Assembly (NCBI GenBank): GCA_903908715.1
Contig: CAIVSY010000115.1
Coordinates: forward strand, 35-64,034
Reading direction: 5' to 3'
Origin: an uncultured bacterium
GTDB taxonomy: Bacteria > Verrucomicrobiota > Kiritimatiellia > CAIKKV01 > CAITUY01
Length of the DNA: 64,000 nucleotides
Shown here: piece after piece, positions 48,339 through 64,000 of the stretch
How the letters are laid out: each line of letters begins with the position of its first letter
Numbering within the stretch: the first letter of the stretch is position 1
The notes under the pieces: generated by a model
The model's database searches: none
What the model was told of the DNA's origin: nothing
The model's input: the letters and a program-made list of their open reading frames with translations, nothing else
Translations under genes and position numbers: made by a program

Positions 48339-49487
48339 ATGCCCCAGCCACAACTGAATCGTCATGCACTGCGGATCAAGCCGCTCCGGGAGCGGCGGAA
48401 CAAGGTGCAGGCGGAAAAGGACTTTCCCGATCCTGACGGTGCCTTGCCGGGGCCTGCCCTGCCGGAGGAAGCCATGGGGGAGATTGTCGGCCGGATCCGG
48501 TCCGCGCGGCAGGCGGGACGACCGGTGATCCTCGCGTTTGGTGCGCATACCATCAAGAACGGGCTTGGTCCGGTGCTGATCCGCTTGATGGAGGACGGCT
48601 GGCTCTCGCATCTGGCCACGAATGGAGCGGGTATAATCCATGACTGGGAGTTCGCCTTCCAGGGCGCGAGCAGCGAGGATGTGAAGGGCAACGTGGCGCG
48701 CGGGGAATTCGGGATCTGGCAGGAGACCGGATCCCTGATCAATCTGGCCATCGTGGTGGGGGCTTATGAGGGATTGGGATACGGGGAATCGGTTGGGAAG
48801 ATGATTGAACGCGAGGGTTTGGAGATCCCGGCGGCGGAGATGCTGAAGGCGGCGTTGGCGGGGAATGCCCCTCACCCTGGCCCTCTCCCGCAAGGTGAGA
48901 GGGAAAAGGGGGGCGTGAGGTGGGAGCGCGCGGCGGCCGCGGCGGACTTGCTTGGCGTGCTGGAACGGTTCCCCCTTAAGCCGGGATGGATGTCCATTCC
49001 GCATCCCTTCAAGCAATACAGTGCGCAGGCGGCGGCTTTCCGGCTGGGGATTCCTTTCACGGGGCATCCGATGTTCGGGCACGATATCATCTACTGCCAT
49101 CCCATGAACCATGGAGCGGCGATCGGCCGGGCGGCCGAGCGTGATTTCCTTACGTTTGCCCATTCGGTGGCGCAGATACAGGAGGGTGTCTATCTTTCTG
49201 TTGGCTCAGCGGTAATGTCGCCGATGATTTTCGAGAAGGCGCTGTCCATGGCGCAGAATCTGGCCTTGCAGAAGGGCGGGCCGATCGATCGCCACTACAT
49301 CGCGGTGGTTGATCTGGCCGAATCCAGGTGGGACTGGGGGCGGCAGGGGGAACCGCCGGTGGATAATCCGGCGTATTATCTGCGGTACTGCAAGACATTC
49401 AGCCGTATGGGCGGTTCCCTGCGCTACCTGTGCGCCGACAATCGCAGTTTCCTGATGGCCTTGCGGCGCAGGCTGGGGAACGGATGA
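48339..49487 (+). CDS. Deoxyhypusine-synthase-like (Rossmann-type) protein carrying an in-frame REP-like repeat insertion
   Basis: 382 aa. GAHTIKNGLGPVLIRLMEDGWLSHLATNGAGIIHDWE resembles the DHS NAD-binding core. The tentative call is from weak pattern similarity only. Confidence 0.4.
   Translation: MPQPQLNRHALRIKPLRERRNKVQAEKDFPDPDGALPGPALPEEAMGEIVGRIRSARQAGRPVILAFGAHTIKNGLGPVLIRLMEDGWLSHLATNGAGIIHDWEFAFQGASSEDVKGNVARGEFGIWQETGSLINLAIVVGAYEGLGYGESVGKMIEREGLEIPAAEMLKAALAGNAPHPGPLPQGEREKGGVRWERAAAAADLLGVLERFPLKPGWMSIPHPFKQYSAQAAAFRLGIPFTGHPMFGHDIIYCHPMNHGAAIGRAAERDFLTFAHSVAQIQEGVYLSVGSAVMSPMIFEKALSMAQNLALQKGGPIDRHYIAVVDLAESRWDWGRQGEPPVDNPAYYLRYCKTFSRMGGSLRYLCADNRSFLMALRRRLGNG
48868..48925. 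repeat. REP-like palindromic unit (cccctcaccctggccctctcccgcaaggtgagaggg...gggcgtgaggtggg) located inside the CDS 48339-49487, read through in frame
   Basis: Near-identical to the units at 56881-56917 and 63875-63911. Encodes ...APHPGPLPQGEREKGGVRWE... within the protein. Confidence 0.6.
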
Positions 49488-50487: not shown

Positions 50488-52854
50488 TCAGGGCTTCACT
50501 GTTTTCAGCAACGCCTGCTTCTTGTCTTCCGGGAGAGACGATTGGAGGATCCAGGCTTCCGCAGCGGAGGCATCGGCCTGGAGCCATTGTCGTCCGATAT
50601 TCTCCGTGATAGCGTTGCGCTGAGCCGGATCGGAGATGACGCCGACCCAGGTAGTGGCGATTTCGGGATAATCCCGGGCAATGGCGCTGATATAGGCTGG
50701 GACCAGTTTTTCGTAGGCGGAATCGGAGTTCATGGAGGAGAGCCATTTGCCTGCGGACGTCGGGTCCGTAAGGGCCCAGGATTCGGTGGCGGTCTGCAGG
50801 GCCCGGGTGCGTTCCTCGCCGGCGGGGAACGTGGCGGCCCAGGTGGCGGCCGCCTTTGGGTCGTTTGCGGACCAGGCGGACACCACGGTTTGGACGGCAC
50901 GGCTTTGTGCCGCTCCCGCCGGTTGACCGGCCACGAATTCGGCGGCCTGCTCCGGCGAAATCCGGGCCAGGGCTCCTGCGGCCCCTTCCACAAAAGCATC
51001 TCGGGCTTCCCCTTGCGGCATCGCGTTGGCGTACTCGATTGTGGATTTTACGTTCTGGGAGCCCATGGTTCCGGCGATGCTGCGAAACAGCGCGTTCCTT
51101 GTATTGCCGGCGGGCAGACTTTCCACGAACGACAAAGCGCCTTTCAGATCATTATTAGCCCATGTCGGAACCACCTGGGCGAGGGCATCCTGTGAAGCCT
51201 TGCCTTCCGGCAGGGATTGGATCCATTCCACAGCCCGCACAGGATCGGTGTTCGCCCACAGGCTTGCGACGGAGCGGATGAAATCAGTGCGGGTTCCGCC
51301 TGTCGGCAGGGAATCGATCATGGCGGCGGCGGATTCCGGATCGTGTTGGCCGAGGGTCCAGATCAACTGTTGCATGGCGCTGCGCCGGGCGGCGCCCTCC
51401 GGCAGGGACTCATACAATTCCACGGCGGCATAGGGATCATTGTTGGCCAGGCTGGAAATGGCCGGAACGATTGCCCGGGTCTGCTGCGGCCCGGCCGGGA
51501 GGGAGGCGGCGAAGGCCAGTGCGGTCTTGGGATCCTGCCACGAGAGTTGCTGGACGATGGCCTGGAGGATGTTGTTCCGTTCTGCGCCGGTCGGGATCGA
51601 ATTCAGGAACTGCAGGGTTGCCTTCGGGTCCTCCTGCGCCCAGTTGCTGAGGGCTTGTCCGAGCATACGTGTCCGGTTCTCACTCGGTCGAAGGTTCTGG
51701 ATGAAGGCCAAGGCATCCTTCGGGGCCGAGGCAGCCCAGACCTGACACAACTGTTGGAGGATCATTTCCCGGGTGGCGTCATCAGGCAGTGACCGGGTCC
51801 ATGCGATGGCGCCCTCCAGGTCGGTATTGGCCCAGTTGGCGGAAATGGACCGCAGGGTATTCTGGCGCGTTTGCCCTGCGGGGAGGGAGTTGGCGTAGTC
51901 GGCGGCCTGTCGCGGGTCGGATCCGCACCACTGGGAAAGGATGGTGGAGATGACGTTATTCTTCTGCTGGCTCATCGGGAGTGAATCGGCCCATGCCAGG
52001 GCGGCCCTTGGATCCTTGCTGCCCCAGGAACTGCCGAGGGCCTGGATGGCCATGTTCAGTTCGTTATAGGTGAGCGCGTCCATCTTCCGGATGGCTTCGG
52101 CGGGATTCGACTGGCCCCAGTTCTGGAAGATCGCATAGATGGCGCCGCTGTAGACGGGGGACTTGGGCTGTCGCTGGTACAGATCGAAAGCGGCCGCCGG
52201 ATTCCTGGCCGAAGAGCCGTTGATCAGTGCGGTGATCGCCTGCTTTCGCGTCATGCCCTGGGGCAGGGTGTTCACCCAGGCCTCCGCGGCGACGGGGTCC
52301 TGGGCGCCCCATGCGGACACCACGGATTGTACGGCGCTGGAATACCAGTTCTTTTCCTTGATCCGGGCGGTGTACTGGATGGCGGCGCGAGGGTCCGATT
52401 CGGCCCAGCGGGCGATCAGTTGCTGCCGGGCGGAGTTGCGGAGGTTGATGTTCGGAATGGCCTCGATCAGATGTATGGCCTGCGCCATGTCCTCCTTGCG
52501 GAGGCCGGCGAGCAGGGAATTGATGCTCTGCCACTGGCGGGACGGCGGCTGGCGGATCAGGTCCTGGACTTTTGCGGTGAGGTCCGACAGCGTGGTTTCC
52601 GTTTTTGCGGCGGCTGATTCCTGCTGTGCGGTTTTTGCCTGCTTCTGCGGAGCATCGGCGGCGCCAGCCGGCACAGCGGGGTCCGGTTGCGGAGGTGTGA
52701 CAGAAGGTGCGGGGGTTGGCGGTTGCAGTGCGGCGAGGGTTGCGCGGAGTTCCCGGATCTGGCGGTATTGCCAGCCTGCGAGAAGGGTCAGAAGGAGCAG
52801 GAGGCAGAGGACAGCGGGGTGACGGAGGGTTGGTCGCATGCTGAAAACTCCCAT
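50488..52854 (-). CDS. Signal-anchored protein composed of about 20 tandem 32-aa repeats (consensus W(A/G)xxDPxxAxxWxxSLPxGxxRxxxxxxxxxx); no family recognised
   Basis: 788 aa. N-terminal hydrophobic anchor, Pro-rich and coiled-coil segment, then the regular repeat array read directly from the translation. Confidence 0.6.
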   Translation of the reverse strand: MGVFSMRPTLRHPAVLCLLLLLTLLAGWQYRQIRELRATLAALQPPTPAPSVTPPQPDPAVPAGAADAPQKQAKTAQQESAAAKTETTLSDLTAKVQDLIRQPPSRQWQSINSLLAGLRKEDMAQAIHLIEAIPNINLRNSARQQLIARWAESDPRAAIQYTARIKEKNWYSSAVQSVVSAWGAQDPVAAEAWVNTLPQGMTRKQAITALINGSSARNPAAAFDLYQRQPKSPVYSGAIYAIFQNWGQSNPAEAIRKMDALTYNELNMAIQALGSSWGSKDPRAALAWADSLPMSQQKNNVISTILSQWCGSDPRQAADYANSLPAGQTRQNTLRSISANWANTDLEGAIAWTRSLPDDATREMILQQLCQVWAASAPKDALAFIQNLRPSENRTRMLGQALSNWAQEDPKATLQFLNSIPTGAERNNILQAIVQQLSWQDPKTALAFAASLPAGPQQTRAIVPAISSLANNDPYAAVELYESLPEGAARRSAMQQLIWTLGQHDPESAAAMIDSLPTGGTRTDFIRSVASLWANTDPVRAVEWIQSLPEGKASQDALAQVVPTWANNDLKGALSFVESLPAGNTRNALFRSIAGTMGSQNVKSTIEYANAMPQGEARDAFVEGAAGALARISPEQAAEFVAGQPAGAAQSRAVQTVVSAWSANDPKAAATWAATFPAGEERTRALQTATESWALTDPTSAGKWLSSMNSDSAYEKLVPAYISAIARDYPEIATTWVGVISDPAQRNAITENIGRQWLQADASAAEAWILQSSLPEDKKQALLKTVKP

Positions 52855-55723: not shown

Positions 55724-56851
55724 ATGAAAGTGGTGGTTTCATTCGATTCCTTCAAGGGGAGTCTGACAGCTTCCCGCGCCTGCCGCATTGCCGCGGATGC
55801 ACTGCGCAAGGAATGGCCTGGCTGCCGGGTTGTCACAGTCCCGATGGCGGATGGCGGCGAGGGGACGGCGGAAGCGCTGTTGAGTTCGGGACTTGGGGTC
55901 TGGCGCCCGCGGCGCGTGATGGGCCCGTTGCCGGACATGGAGGTGGACGCCGGCACGGCGTGGTTTCCCGCAGAACGGTCGGCCTTGGTGGAGATGGCGT
56001 CCGCCAGCGGGATCACCCATCTTCGTGCTGATCAGTTGAACCCGATGGCAACCACCACGTACGGGACCGGCCAGTTGATCCGGGCGGTGCTGGACGATAA
56101 GCCGGGAGTGATCCGGCTGGCTGTTGGAGGCAGTGCGACCACGGACGGCGGTGTGGGTGCGGCGATGGCATTGGGTTGGCGGTTCCTGGACGCCGGCGGG
56201 CGGGATGTCGGGTTGGGCGGTGCGGCGCTGGAGCGGATTGCGGAGATCCTGCCGCCGTTCCGCGGCTGGAGTCTTCCGCCGGTGGAAGTCCTGTGCGATG
56301 TGGATAATCCCCTGTGCGGGCCCGATGGTGCGGCGGCGGTGTACGGCCCGCAGAAGGGGGCCACGCCGGAAATGGTGGTGCGGCTGGATCAGGGTCTGGC
56401 CAGGCTGGCCGAACGGGTGAAGCAGCGGTTCGGAACGGACATGGCCGGGATTCGTGGGGCGGGGGCGGCCGGCGGATTGGCTGGCGGGGCCGTGGCTTTT
56501 TTGGGCGCGAGCCTGGTGCCCGGTATCCGGACAATCCTTTGTTCTTCCGGACTTGAGCGGGAAATCAAGGATGCCGACTGGGTGATAACCGGCGAGGGCT
56601 CCTTTGATTCCCAGTCGTTCCGCGGCAAGGTTGTCTCCGGTGTGCTGGAAGCGGCTCTGCATACAGGGGCCAAGGTGGCGGTTTTGGCCGGACGGATCAC
56701 GGTTCCCGAGGAACGGTGGCGGCAGGCTGGTGTAAGCGCGGCGCTGGCGCTGGCCGTGCCCGGGATGCCGACGGAGGAGGCGATGGGCCGTGCGGAGGAA
56801 TTGCTGCGGGAACGGGTCAGGGAACTTGCCGCCAGGATCCGGAAGGCTTAG
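55724..56851 (+). CDS. Glycerate kinase
   Basis: About 375 aa. N-terminal VVVSFDSFKGSLTA and the MADGGEGT motif of the GlxK/GarK family. Confidence 0.85.
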   Translation: MKVVVSFDSFKGSLTASRACRIAADALRKEWPGCRVVTVPMADGGEGTAEALLSSGLGVWRPRRVMGPLPDMEVDAGTAWFPAERSALVEMASASGITHLRADQLNPMATTTYGTGQLIRAVLDDKPGVIRLAVGGSATTDGGVGAAMALGWRFLDAGGRDVGLGGAALERIAEILPPFRGWSLPPVEVLCDVDNPLCGPDGAAAVYGPQKGATPEMVVRLDQGLARLAERVKQRFGTDMAGIRGAGAAGGLAGGAVAFLGASLVPGIRTILCSSGLEREIKDADWVITGEGSFDSQSFRGKVVSGVLEAALHTGAKVAVLAGRITVPEERWRQAGVSAALALAVPGMPTEEAMGRAEELLRERVRELAARIRKA

Positions 56852-56880
56852 CCGGAGCGATTCAGTTACCGGATGCAATT

Positions 56881-57062
56881 CCCCTCACCTCGATCCTCTC
56901 CCGCAAGGGGAGAGGAAATGGCAACGACTCCCTTTAAGCCGTCACCAGAAGGTGATACCGCTGGAGTCTCGCAACGATTCGGAATTCCTTCTCTCTTTAC
57001 GGGGGATGACAAGATCCATCCCTGCCTCTCCCTTGACGGGTCAGGGTTGGGGTGAGGGTGTT
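56881..57062. repeat. Composite roughly 180-bp palindromic element. It has two inverted REP-like units (cccctcacc-tcgat-cctctcccgcaaggggagagg at the left; cctctccc...gggtcagg-gttgg-ggtgaggg at the right) flanking an approximately 110-bp core. MITE/BIME-like, non-coding.
   Basis: Read directly. The terminal 8-9 nt are exact inverted repeats (ccctcacc/ggtgaggg). The same unit recurs at 48868 and 63875. Confidence 0.6.
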
Positions 57063-57116
57063 TCGAACTGAGTCTTTCCGGCTTAGGCACGGATTTGCGC
57101 GGGCAGGCTTCTGGCA

Positions 57117-57989
57117 TTATAGCCAGCGCGGCAGGATGCCCGGCGAGGCGGCGTCCAGTTGACCGGAGGCGAGGATCTGGTCGAGCGTTGCAAGAAGCGC
57201 CGGCTTGTCGCGGGGCAGTCGTGCTTCCAGCGGGATCACATTGGACGTGTGGTTTGCGCGGAAGACGGTATTCGTCAATTCCAGGTGCTGGACCAGGGTG
57301 CGGAGTTCCTGTACCACGCCTGCCTCGCTGATCGGGGTAAACCGGCCTGCTGCCACATCCGTGTGCAGTTCGGTGCCCGGCACGGGGACGACCCGCAAAG
57401 CGGAAAGGAGCCGGGGTTGCATCCGGTTCAAGGCGGCAGCCGTGGCCCCGGCATGTTGGCGGGAACCGGCGGGGCCCCCGAGTCCGAGCAGGATCATCAC
57501 GGAAACGCGGAGCCCGGCGGTCTGGGCACGGCGGCCGGCTTCGATCATGTTGGCGGCCGTTTCCGCTTTGCGGACCCTGCGGAGGGTTTCTTCATCACCG
57601 CTTTCGAGCCCCAGGTATAGGGTGTGGAGTTTCCGGGCACGCAGGGTCAGCAATTGTTCCGGGGTCTTATCCAGAATGGAGAGGCCGGTGGCGTAGGTGT
57701 TCACCCGGGCGAGATCCGGGAAACGGGTGGCTAGGAGGTCCAGGATTTCCAGCAGATCCTTGCAGGGGCGGCGCATCACATCGCCGTCCGCGAGGAAGAT
57801 CCGGCGGGCGTCCGGTTCCTGGCGTGCTTCCGCCATAATCAGGCGGGCGACTTCCTCCAGGGGGCGTTGCCGGTACGAAAGGCCGCGGTACATACCGCAG
57901 AAGGTGCAACGGTTATAGGGACAGCCGATGTCCGTCTGCAGGATCAGACTTCCGGCTTCGGCGGGCGGCCTGAAAAGGGGGTGGTTCAT
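57117..57989 (-). CDS. Radical SAM domain protein (CxxxCxxC = CPYNRCTFC); specific function unknown
   Basis: 290 aa. Cluster motif near the N-terminus, and a GLESGDEETL-type sIGvQS-like segment. Confidence 0.7.
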   Translation of the reverse strand: MNHPLFRPPAEAGSLILQTDIGCPYNRCTFCGMYRGLSYRQRPLEEVARLIMAEARQEPDARRIFLADGDVMRRPCKDLLEILDLLATRFPDLARVNTYATGLSILDKTPEQLLTLRARKLHTLYLGLESGDEETLRRVRKAETAANMIEAGRRAQTAGLRVSVMILLGLGGPAGSRQHAGATAAALNRMQPRLLSALRVVPVPGTELHTDVAAGRFTPISEAGVVQELRTLVQHLELTNTVFRANHTSNVIPLEARLPRDKPALLATLDQILASGQLDAASPGILPRWL

Positions 57990-63750: not shown

Positions 63751-63869
63751 GGTGGATATCTCCGTAAGCGGTCAGATCATATCTGGATCCTGCGCGTCCC
63801 GGCGAGCAAAATCCACCCGAAGGGCGCCGCGTGAGCGCGTTGGCTGCGGTAGCGTGGAATGATTGAGTT

Positions 63870-64000
63870 CAAGACACCCTCATTCCGACCTTCTCCCGTC
63901 AAGGGAGAGGGAATCCTGTGTCGTTGCGATGCGTCCGTTTCCGCGGGGGTGGAGCACGATTTGTCATCCGTTCCCATTCAGGCATGGTTTTGCGTTTGAC
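63870..64000. repeat. Partial copy of the REP-like palindromic element family (unit caccctcattccgaccttctcccgtcaagggagaggg plus core-like sequence), upstream of glgP and running off the window end
   Basis: Shares the ccctca(c/t)...c(c/t)tctccc-loop-gggagagg unit, and the tcgttgcga and ttgtcatcc core motifs, with the element at 56881-57062. Confidence 0.5.

Follow-up and report, generated by a model that had tools for sequence, protein, structure and literature searches.

A BoxC-type palindromic repeat carried in frame within a predicted loop of a conserved protein of an uncultured Kiritimatiellia bacterium

The DNA analysed here (the window) is a stretch of 64,000 nucleotides (nt) from an uncultured bacterium of the Kiritimatiellia (contig CAIVSY010000115.1, assembly GCA_903908715.1). 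It carries a short palindromic repeat at 48869-48903, in frame inside an open reading frame (ORF) of 382 amino acids (aa) that codes for a protein of the GSU2086 family (Table 1). No family was matched when the host protein was searched against Pfam. A homolog search returned 5645 homologs, and the nearest named relatives are from Kiritimatiellaeota, Verrucomicrobiae, and Lentisphaerae. According to the fold search, the fold is distantly similar to that of deoxyhypusine synthase and LOR-SDH-like proteins. The stretch of about 19 aa that the repeat was first thought to add to the protein, PHPGPLPQGEREKGGVRWE, corresponds to residues 178-196.

The 21-nt core of the repeat, CCTCTCCCGCAAGGKGAGAGG, starts at 48882 and occurs again at 56895 with 0 mismatches, the expected number being 0.00 in 100 dinucleotide-preserving shuffles. 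A repeat finder placed 48864-48905 in one family with 56877-56918 (83% identity) and 63872-63913 (69% identity), and as an inverted repeat it revealed a fourth copy on the minus strand that had been overlooked in the original prediction. A profile hidden Markov model trained solely on 152 copies from other genomes recognized exactly four sites in the 64 kb, with E values of 2.5e-7, 1.6e-7, 0.006, and 0.09, where 2.5e-7 belongs to the genic copy. The four copies have unrelated flanks, as is usual for a multicopy interspersed repeat, and copies 2 and 4 form an inverted pair about 106 nt apart. The repeat is real and far above chance. A palindromic unit lying in frame at 48868 had been predicted, and the ORF list, the repeat finder, and the profile of foreign copies all agree with it; the two further copies predicted at 56881 and 63875 are both intergenic, the latter one being degenerate.

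The unit has the form CCCTCACCC-N3-CCCTCTCCC-loop-GGGAGAGGG and consists of three 9-nt C/G blocks. In general terms, the pattern is CCCTCNCCC-N3-CCCTCNCCC-loop-GGGNGAGGG on the C-rich strand and CCCTCNCCC-N3-6-GGGNGAGGG-N3-GGGNGAGGG on the opposite one. The latter is the pattern published for the BoxC (TMECO) element, in which no more than one position may be mismatched (Holder et al. 2015, PMC4666352). On the minus strand, the sequence of 48869-48903 is CCCTCTCAC-CTTGC-GGGAGAGGG-CCA-GGGTGAGGG, which departs from the BoxC pattern by one substitution in its first block; on the plus strand, block 3 (GTGAGAGGG) differs from GGGNGAGGG by one substitution or bulge. Judged by this pattern, the repeat is one copy of the short interspersed element known as BoxC, PIT (potential intrastrand triplex), TMECO, or HPGQ1/2 (PMC4666352, PMC5100583), with which it has in common the three blocks and the variable loop (Hoyne & Maher 2000, 2002; PMC4666352; Kaplan et al. 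2016, PMC5100583). Escherichia coli K-12 has 23 copies, all intergenic and often arranged in inverted pairs; the element forms triplexes, G-quadruplexes, and hairpins in vitro and is associated with local genomic instability (PMC4666352, PMC5100583). In the work of Hoyne & Maher as it is cited in PMC4666352, PIT elements are described as having no promoter or terminator activity. Four G-tracts, a G-quadruplex or triplex motif, are visible on the window element's minus strand, and the genic copy is predicted to fold into a hairpin with a 1-nt bulge and a minimum free energy of -23.8 kcal/mol (centroid -16.4, z = -1.8). BoxC-type elements have been known in E. coli since the 1990s, and to our knowledge neither their function nor a mechanism of their mobility has been established in three decades.

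The label "REP-like" given to the repeat in the original prediction, after the repetitive extragenic palindromic (REP) elements, is right insofar as it is a palindromic interspersed repeat, and imprecise as to the family: the GTAG or CGTC head of REP elements is absent from all four copies. An intrinsic terminator was rejected as well, as no T-run follows any of the four copies and a scan of 56700-57300 gave one unrelated site only. When the whole 64 kb was searched against Rfam at gathering scores, no family was found, those of tRNAs, rRNAs, and riboswitches included, and at 56800-57200 a permissive scan yielded chance-level hits only.

The element is widespread. A pattern scan of GTDB genomes, one per species, identified at least 120 loci carrying BoxC (counts from these collection scans are lower bounds and the samples are non-random). 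Among the matches listed, the hosts are Proteobacteria, Cyanobacteria, Planctomycetes, Verrucomicrobia, Chloroflexi, Acidobacteriota, Omnitrophica, and others. Across the genomes, the blocks are conserved, the loops variable, and the flanks unrelated. At least 120 predicted viral contigs of IMG/VR (L209-L328), which may include host flanks of prophages, carried the pattern as well; a phage or plasmid association of BoxC/TMECO was not found previously (PMC4666352).

Orthologs of the host protein are numbered here P0002 onwards. In the codon alignment with P0002, the nearest relative (81% identity), and P0003 (78-81% identity), the extra DNA consists of the 15 codons given in Table 1 and one further codon, GTG at 48915-48917. 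P0002 shares this insert, at an identical codon position; P0003 and P0004-P0008 are without it. When 34 orthologs are aligned, a single stretch, located between "...EGLxIP" and "RxAAAADLL", is hypervariable, and the segment lies within it. This loop is 32 aa long in the window protein, against a family baseline of 17-18 aa, and P0003-P0008 together with about two-thirds of 89 anchored homologs have a loop of 14-21 aa without the segment. The residues W-E-R, which had been counted as inserted, are ancestral, because insertion-free orthologs keep EWER or WDR at this place. The predicted in-frame extra segment therefore exists, with a size of about 15-16 codons and not 19. Its absence from P0003-P0008 and from most orthologs, and its presence in P0002, is not the distribution of an ancestral part of the protein conserved throughout the family.

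In the AlphaFold model of the host protein (mean predicted local distance difference test score, pLDDT, 84; predicted template modelling score 0.86), residues 174-191 form a coil that connects helix 166-173 to helix 192-210, and pLDDT drops below 50 at 185-189. It is the only long low-confidence coil of the model, and the segment is thus predicted to be in a disordered surface loop and not in the core. Outside the loop, the ratio of nonsynonymous to synonymous substitution rates (dN/dS) is 0.106 in the comparison with P0002 and 0.115 with P0003, at a dS of about 1, and all invariant residues of the family are retained in the window protein. Because P0002 shares the insertion, dN/dS of 0.106 at this distance indicates strong purifying selection since the insertion. 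It had been proposed that the repeat is either a loop insertion tolerated by the protein or the mark of a recently inactivated gene. The predicted coil agrees with the former; the latter was rejected on the dN/dS value, the intact frame, and the shared insertion.

Within the insert, codons 1-11 differ from those of P0002 at 4 of 33 nt, three of the differences being synonymous, and the first ten inserted residues, PHPGPLPQGE, are identical in both proteins. The 3' part has diverged freely (EKGGVR in the window protein, GRDG-G in P0002). The bulge in the stem here and the uncompensated changes in P0002 mean that the element now evolves as coding sequence.

According to the best explanation, to which we assign a probability of roughly 85%, a BoxC copy was inserted in frame and kept in a permissive loop of a functional GSU2086-family enzyme. 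The copy would have entered the DNA coding for the disordered loop between helices 166-173 and 192-210 before the split from the P0002 lineage, and the gene has been under strong purifying selection since then. Of its six frames, the BoxC consensus is interrupted by a stop codon in one only, and it encodes a peptide rich in Pro, Gly, Ser, and Glu, so that an in-frame copy in a permissive loop leaves the protein intact.

Several points weigh against this explanation. The nearest insertion-free ortholog is only 78-81% identical and a closer allele with an empty site was not found; since P0003 is too diverged to replace it, the exact junctions and a target-site duplication are not definable. The window protein, P0002, and P0003 are nearly equidistant (dN of 0.108, 0.113, and 0.119), so the segment may also have been lost in P0003. 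The placement in a loop rests on a predicted structure. Finally, 4 differences in 33 nt are fewer than expected for neutral sequence at a dS of about 1, and the peptide or the DNA may thus be constrained and not merely tolerated; homogenization by other BoxC copies may be another cause of this similarity.

The last point leads to the alternative that the insert was co-opted, either as a functional peptide (for interaction, or as a flexible lid) or as an mRNA hairpin slowing down translation between the structural halves. The few differences from P0002, mostly synonymous, are in line with it, as 5 of the 11 native loop positions immediately upstream are different, and both genes are predicted to form a stable hairpin. 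However, only 11 codons are sampled, the 3' half of the insert is unconserved, the stem changes in P0002 are non-compensatory, most orthologs function without the insert, and gene conversion from other BoxC copies might also maintain the similarity. We regard co-option as unlikely. It is compatible with insertion into a permissive loop as a later step and, because of the 11 codons, is held as a rival or an addition to that explanation and not as a conclusion.

The same loop has received repeats in other lineages also. P0009, P0010, P0014, P0018, P0029, and P0087 contain CACCCTCACCCCAACCCTCTCCCCTGAAGGGAGAGGG in it. In this clade, BoxC is read as APSPQPSPLKGEG, in a different codon phase from PHPGPLPQGE of the window protein, the spacer and the loop are different, and the element ends a few codons nearer to the conserved "ER". 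A quick neighbour-joining tree separated the two BoxC-bearing groups into distinct clades with BoxC-free sequences between them. The different reading frame in the second clade points to at least two insertions, and two or more independent events are the parsimonious reading of the sequences. Eight BoxC-type peptides were identified among the best 120 of the 5645 homologs, all within this loop. Furthermore, the loop is expanded in 28 of 89 anchored homologs, with other repeat-like inserts (Table 1). Among these inserts, a palindrome reads as GLQCGRRTPCGDSS along one arm and as RRTECASH along the second, reverse complementarity being confirmed on the DNA; SEQWTVNSG-type and GRWEV-type inserts and a short tandem EVGNQRSEI were seen as well.

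Such accumulation could mean that the loop is a hot spot of insertion at the DNA level, the G-rich target (GGGGAGTGGGAG) resembling a BoxC block and insertion being guided by microhomology or by an endonuclease. The empty site of P0003, GGGGCATGGGGAGTGGGAG, is indeed similar to the GGGNGAGGG blocks, two BoxC insertions occurred a few codons apart in the same orientation, and several other repeat types are present within the same 17-aa loop. On the other hand, the model of the protein has this single long low-confidence coil, so selection alone predicts the pattern; in-frame copies of other proteins are also in inter-domain linkers, and both orientations occur in other genes. A hot spot is accordingly given a small chance, and selection as a filter is favoured because of the one long coil in the model. 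The loop would have collected repeats where a permissive site coincides with a genome having active repeats.

That the segment is an ancestral Pro/Gly-rich linker, native to the protein and matching an intergenic repeat by coincidence, is very improbable. The identity of PHPGPLPQGE in the window protein and P0002 would fit such a linker, but P0003-P0008 and most anchored homologs have the short loop, the DNA is recognized by a profile of copies from unrelated genomes (E = 2.5e-7) and is identical at 21 of 21 nt to an intergenic copy 8 kb away, and in the other BoxC clade this DNA motif is translated in a different frame. A pseudogene decaying after recent inactivation by the insertion is scarcely credible either: nothing beyond the presence of a foreign element speaks for it, and against it stand the intact frame of 382 codons, an insertion shared at a dS of about 1.0 with dN/dS of 0.106 outside the loop, about equal constraint (0.115) in the pair with the insertion-free P0003, and the complete set of invariant family residues. 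Short repeats are able to mis-join metagenomic contigs, but an assembly or chimera artefact is excluded by the identical repeat DNA and the same neighbour genes at two loci fetched from two ENA assemblies, with the identical protein present on five contigs and the gene order and protein alignment colinear on both sides of the insert.

BoxC was found in frame in other genes too. Among the matches listed, 48 of 152 foreign pattern matches are in frames that stay open for 60 codons or more on either side. In genes confirmed by Pfam, the BoxC peptide is located between or inside domains of MetRS, Mfd (two copies, inverted), an ABC exporter (with the membrane domain on one side and the ATPase domain on the other), IcmF (separating MeaB from the mutase domain), lipoamide dehydrogenase (in the linker that follows the lipoyl domain), a YgiQ-type radical SAM protein, a GH31 glycosidase, and the NAD-dependent DNA ligase LigA (in the adenylation domain). 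A PrpD tandem and a truncated AcrB are two ambiguous in-frame cases. Both orientations are represented in these other genes, and in other phyla the in-frame copies are mostly in inter-domain linkers.

The metG gene of a Variovorax metagenome-assembled genome (MAG) carries more than a solitary repeat. Two inverted BoxC copies flank a DUF559 module (PF04480, Vsr-like PD-(D/E)XK), all in frame, and from its sequence the module appears to be translated together with the host protein. Among the matches listed, 6 of 120 genome loci selected by BoxC have a DUF559 homolog, with BoxC within about 170 nt in 6/6, and 3 of 120 viral-contig loci have one, with BoxC adjacent in 3/3; combined, nine of nine DUF559 matches are beside BoxC. 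In the reverse test, 80 metagenomic loci were chosen by a DUF559-core peptide pattern and not by BoxC. Three-block BoxC was present within 250 nt in 56 of them (70%, a figure valid for that subfamily because the 80 loci are the closest relatives of the BoxC-associated queries), and on both sides in 29. In the dominant layout, a hairpin-GGGTGAGGG unit lies 20-60 nt upstream and a CCCTCACCC-hairpin unit 3-50 nt downstream of DUF559. Within 250 nt of the gene, BoxC occurs at 2.93 per kb, 17-fold the density found farther away (0.17 per kb), and shuffles gave zero.

The sole DUF559 gene of E. coli K-12, ycjD, ends in a degenerate BoxC hairpin (...RRSPSP*) overlapping the stop codon; canonical TMECO no. 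9 follows about 170 nt downstream, with a partial duplicate of the ycjD 3' end between them. DUF559 proteins are 14-fold enriched among predicted targets of programmed inversion (Milman et al.), which fits inverted flanking repeats. No DUF559 gene was found in the 64-kb window by tblastn. A literature search found no paper linking BoxC/TMECO with DUF559 or ycjD; such a link may nonetheless have been published.

The inverted flanks make DUF559 a candidate mobilizing enzyme, and on sequence grounds it may be what mobilizes BoxC. The source of the copy in the window gene would then most likely be a BoxC-bearing element related to the BoxC-DUF559-BoxC modules, entering by break repair or template switching. 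A wider scenario is possible but rather doubtful: BoxC elements would be the inverted flanks of small selfish DUF559 modules, the solo and paired copies, such as the 23 of E. coli K-12 and the in-frame one described here, would be non-autonomous derivatives or footprints of them, and these, given a consensus with a stop codon in a single frame of six, would colonize coding loops and linkers across bacterial phyla, including those of the essential genes metG, ligA, and mfd, as a general source of protein insertions.

Compared with BoxC of E. coli, the window element is likewise multicopy, interspersed, present as an inverted pair, predicted to form a hairpin, provided with a G-rich triplex or G-quadruplex motif on the opposite strand, and member of a widely distributed family. 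There, it is "always located intergenically" with "none within" ORFs, whereas here one copy is part of the reading frame of a conserved gene, and the loop concerned was struck again in another lineage. The hairpins of copies 2 and 4 point inward, opposite to the E. coli pairs of type B with type A. The copies have the sequence features of BoxC, and the intergenic location, which the genic copy lacks, is a property reported for the E. coli copies and no sequence trait by which the family is defined.

Rickettsia palindromic elements (RPEs) are 100-150 bp long, limited to Rickettsia, and in frame in protein genes, where they add surface peptides without destroying function. BoxC differs in its length of about 35-45 nt, its G/C-block structure, and its occurrence in many phyla; its sequence is unrelated, the host is a different one, and it does not belong to the RPEs. 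The likeness to these elements, reportedly described by Ogata et al. in 2000, had been noted from the sequence and holds as an analogy of behaviour. In both cases, a palindromic interspersed repeat is in frame in a coding gene and the surface segment, which is predicted here, is tolerated.

REP and REPIN elements have a GTAG or CGTC head, a RAYT (IS200/IS605-type Y1) transposase, and species-specific families. BoxC resembles them as a short palindrome occurring in inverted doublets, mostly 3' of genes, and as inverted repeats flanking a single-copy gene of nuclease or transposase type. It is without the GTAG/CGTC head, the flanked gene codes for a DUF559 endonuclease and not a Y1 transposase, and its core has been conserved among phyla. 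One member of the Vsr/DUF559 clade is the group I intron endonuclease I-Bth0305I (PMC3424549). With homing endonucleases and inteins, the Variovorax locus has in common a small endonuclease ORF embedded in frame in the essential metG gene and a related fold of DUF559. Unlike them, it revealed no intron or intein splicing elements, and the window has solo BoxC only.

What is new is the setting of a known repeat, in frame and recurrent, together with a testable lead to a mobilizing enzyme. The same element that is known as strictly intergenic in E. coli can sit in frame inside a constrained gene, and housekeeping genes from unrelated phyla hold comparable in-frame copies. Loop and linker insertions in bacterial proteins would then arise recurrently from short G/C-block repeats, which would also bring odd low-complexity peptides into annotated proteomes (PSPxPSP...GEG, PHPxPLP). 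Through its association with BoxC, DUF559 becomes a specific candidate enzyme, testable in E. coli by means of ycjD.

Table 1. Features of the window and of compared loci (positions without a locus number refer to the window; L, loci; P, orthologs of the host protein)
Feature	Position	Strand	Basis or remark
Host gene, 382 aa	48339..49487	+	ORF list; NCBIfam NF052581 (GSU2086 family), E = 1.7e-99
Inserted segment, 15 codons, A177-G191	48867..48911	+	Codon alignment with P0002 and P0003; absent from P0003
BoxC block 1, CCCTCACCC	48869..48877	+	Sequence; strict three-block pattern match
BoxC block 2, CCCTCTCCC, hairpin 5' arm	48881..48889	+	Sequence; predicted fold
Hairpin loop GCAAG	48890-48894		Sequence
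BoxC block 3, GTGAGAGGG, hairpin 3' arm	48895..48903	+	Sequence; predicted fold
Intergenic BoxC copy 2	56882..56916	+	About 30 nt 3' of glycerate kinase stop codon; C-rich strand sense
Intergenic BoxC copy 4	57024..57079	-	About 38 nt 3' of stop codon of convergent radical-SAM gene
Degenerate BoxC copy 3	63856..63913	+	Upstream of glycogen phosphorylase gene (minus strand)
Orthologs with other repeat-like inserts	L005:88-1269 (P0018), L004:49-1248 (P0010); P0009, P0011, P0019, P0020, P0025, P0038, P0040, P0041, P0089		
metG (MetRS) with whole BoxC-DUF559-BoxC module in frame	L009:2-2161	+	Between tRNA-synt_1g (catalytic/anticodon part) and C-terminal tRNA_bind
In-frame BoxC genes, other phyla (in order: Mfd, ABC exporter, IcmF, YgiQ-type radical SAM, lipoamide dehydrogenase, GH31, NAD-dependent DNA ligase)	L013:1065-4649, L018:4529-6676, L022:2926-6423, L026:1361-3151, L086:247-2226, L098:941-2335, L100:3173-6157	-, +, +, +, -, +, - (respectively)	
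DUF559 genes with inverted BoxC flanks	L009:1308-1793 (Variovorax MAG JANOCL010000198.1); L028, L070, L078, L081, L110, L128-L207, L267, L288, L289		
ycjD locus	L208:1541-2328 (E. coli K-12 NC_000913.3 1351040-1351827)		

As for the other copies in the window, at 56852-57116 copies 2 and 4 each follow a stop codon by 30-40 nt, that of the glycerate kinase gene and that of the radical SAM gene, respectively, the two genes being convergent, and the C-rich strand is the sense strand in copy 2, copy 4, and the genic copy alike. Copies 3 and 4 are similar over 55 nt (80%; 63856-63910 on the plus strand and 57025-57079 on the minus strand). Both have a 5' extension, GAGTTCRARACA, ahead of the BoxC blocks, and a comparable stretch, GGTCGGAAATA or GGTCAGAAGCA, precedes BoxC in the orthologs P0010 and P0014. 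The extension common to these copies and orthologs suggests, as far as sequence can tell, a longer subfamily unit.

The host gene has a murA-like gene on one side and a LigT-like gene on the other. Another ORF of the window, 788 aa long at 50488-52854 on the minus strand, has an internal periodic repeat of 96 nt (32 aa; direct repeat family D1, 51202-51810), and from its sequence the product looks like a solenoid repeat protein.

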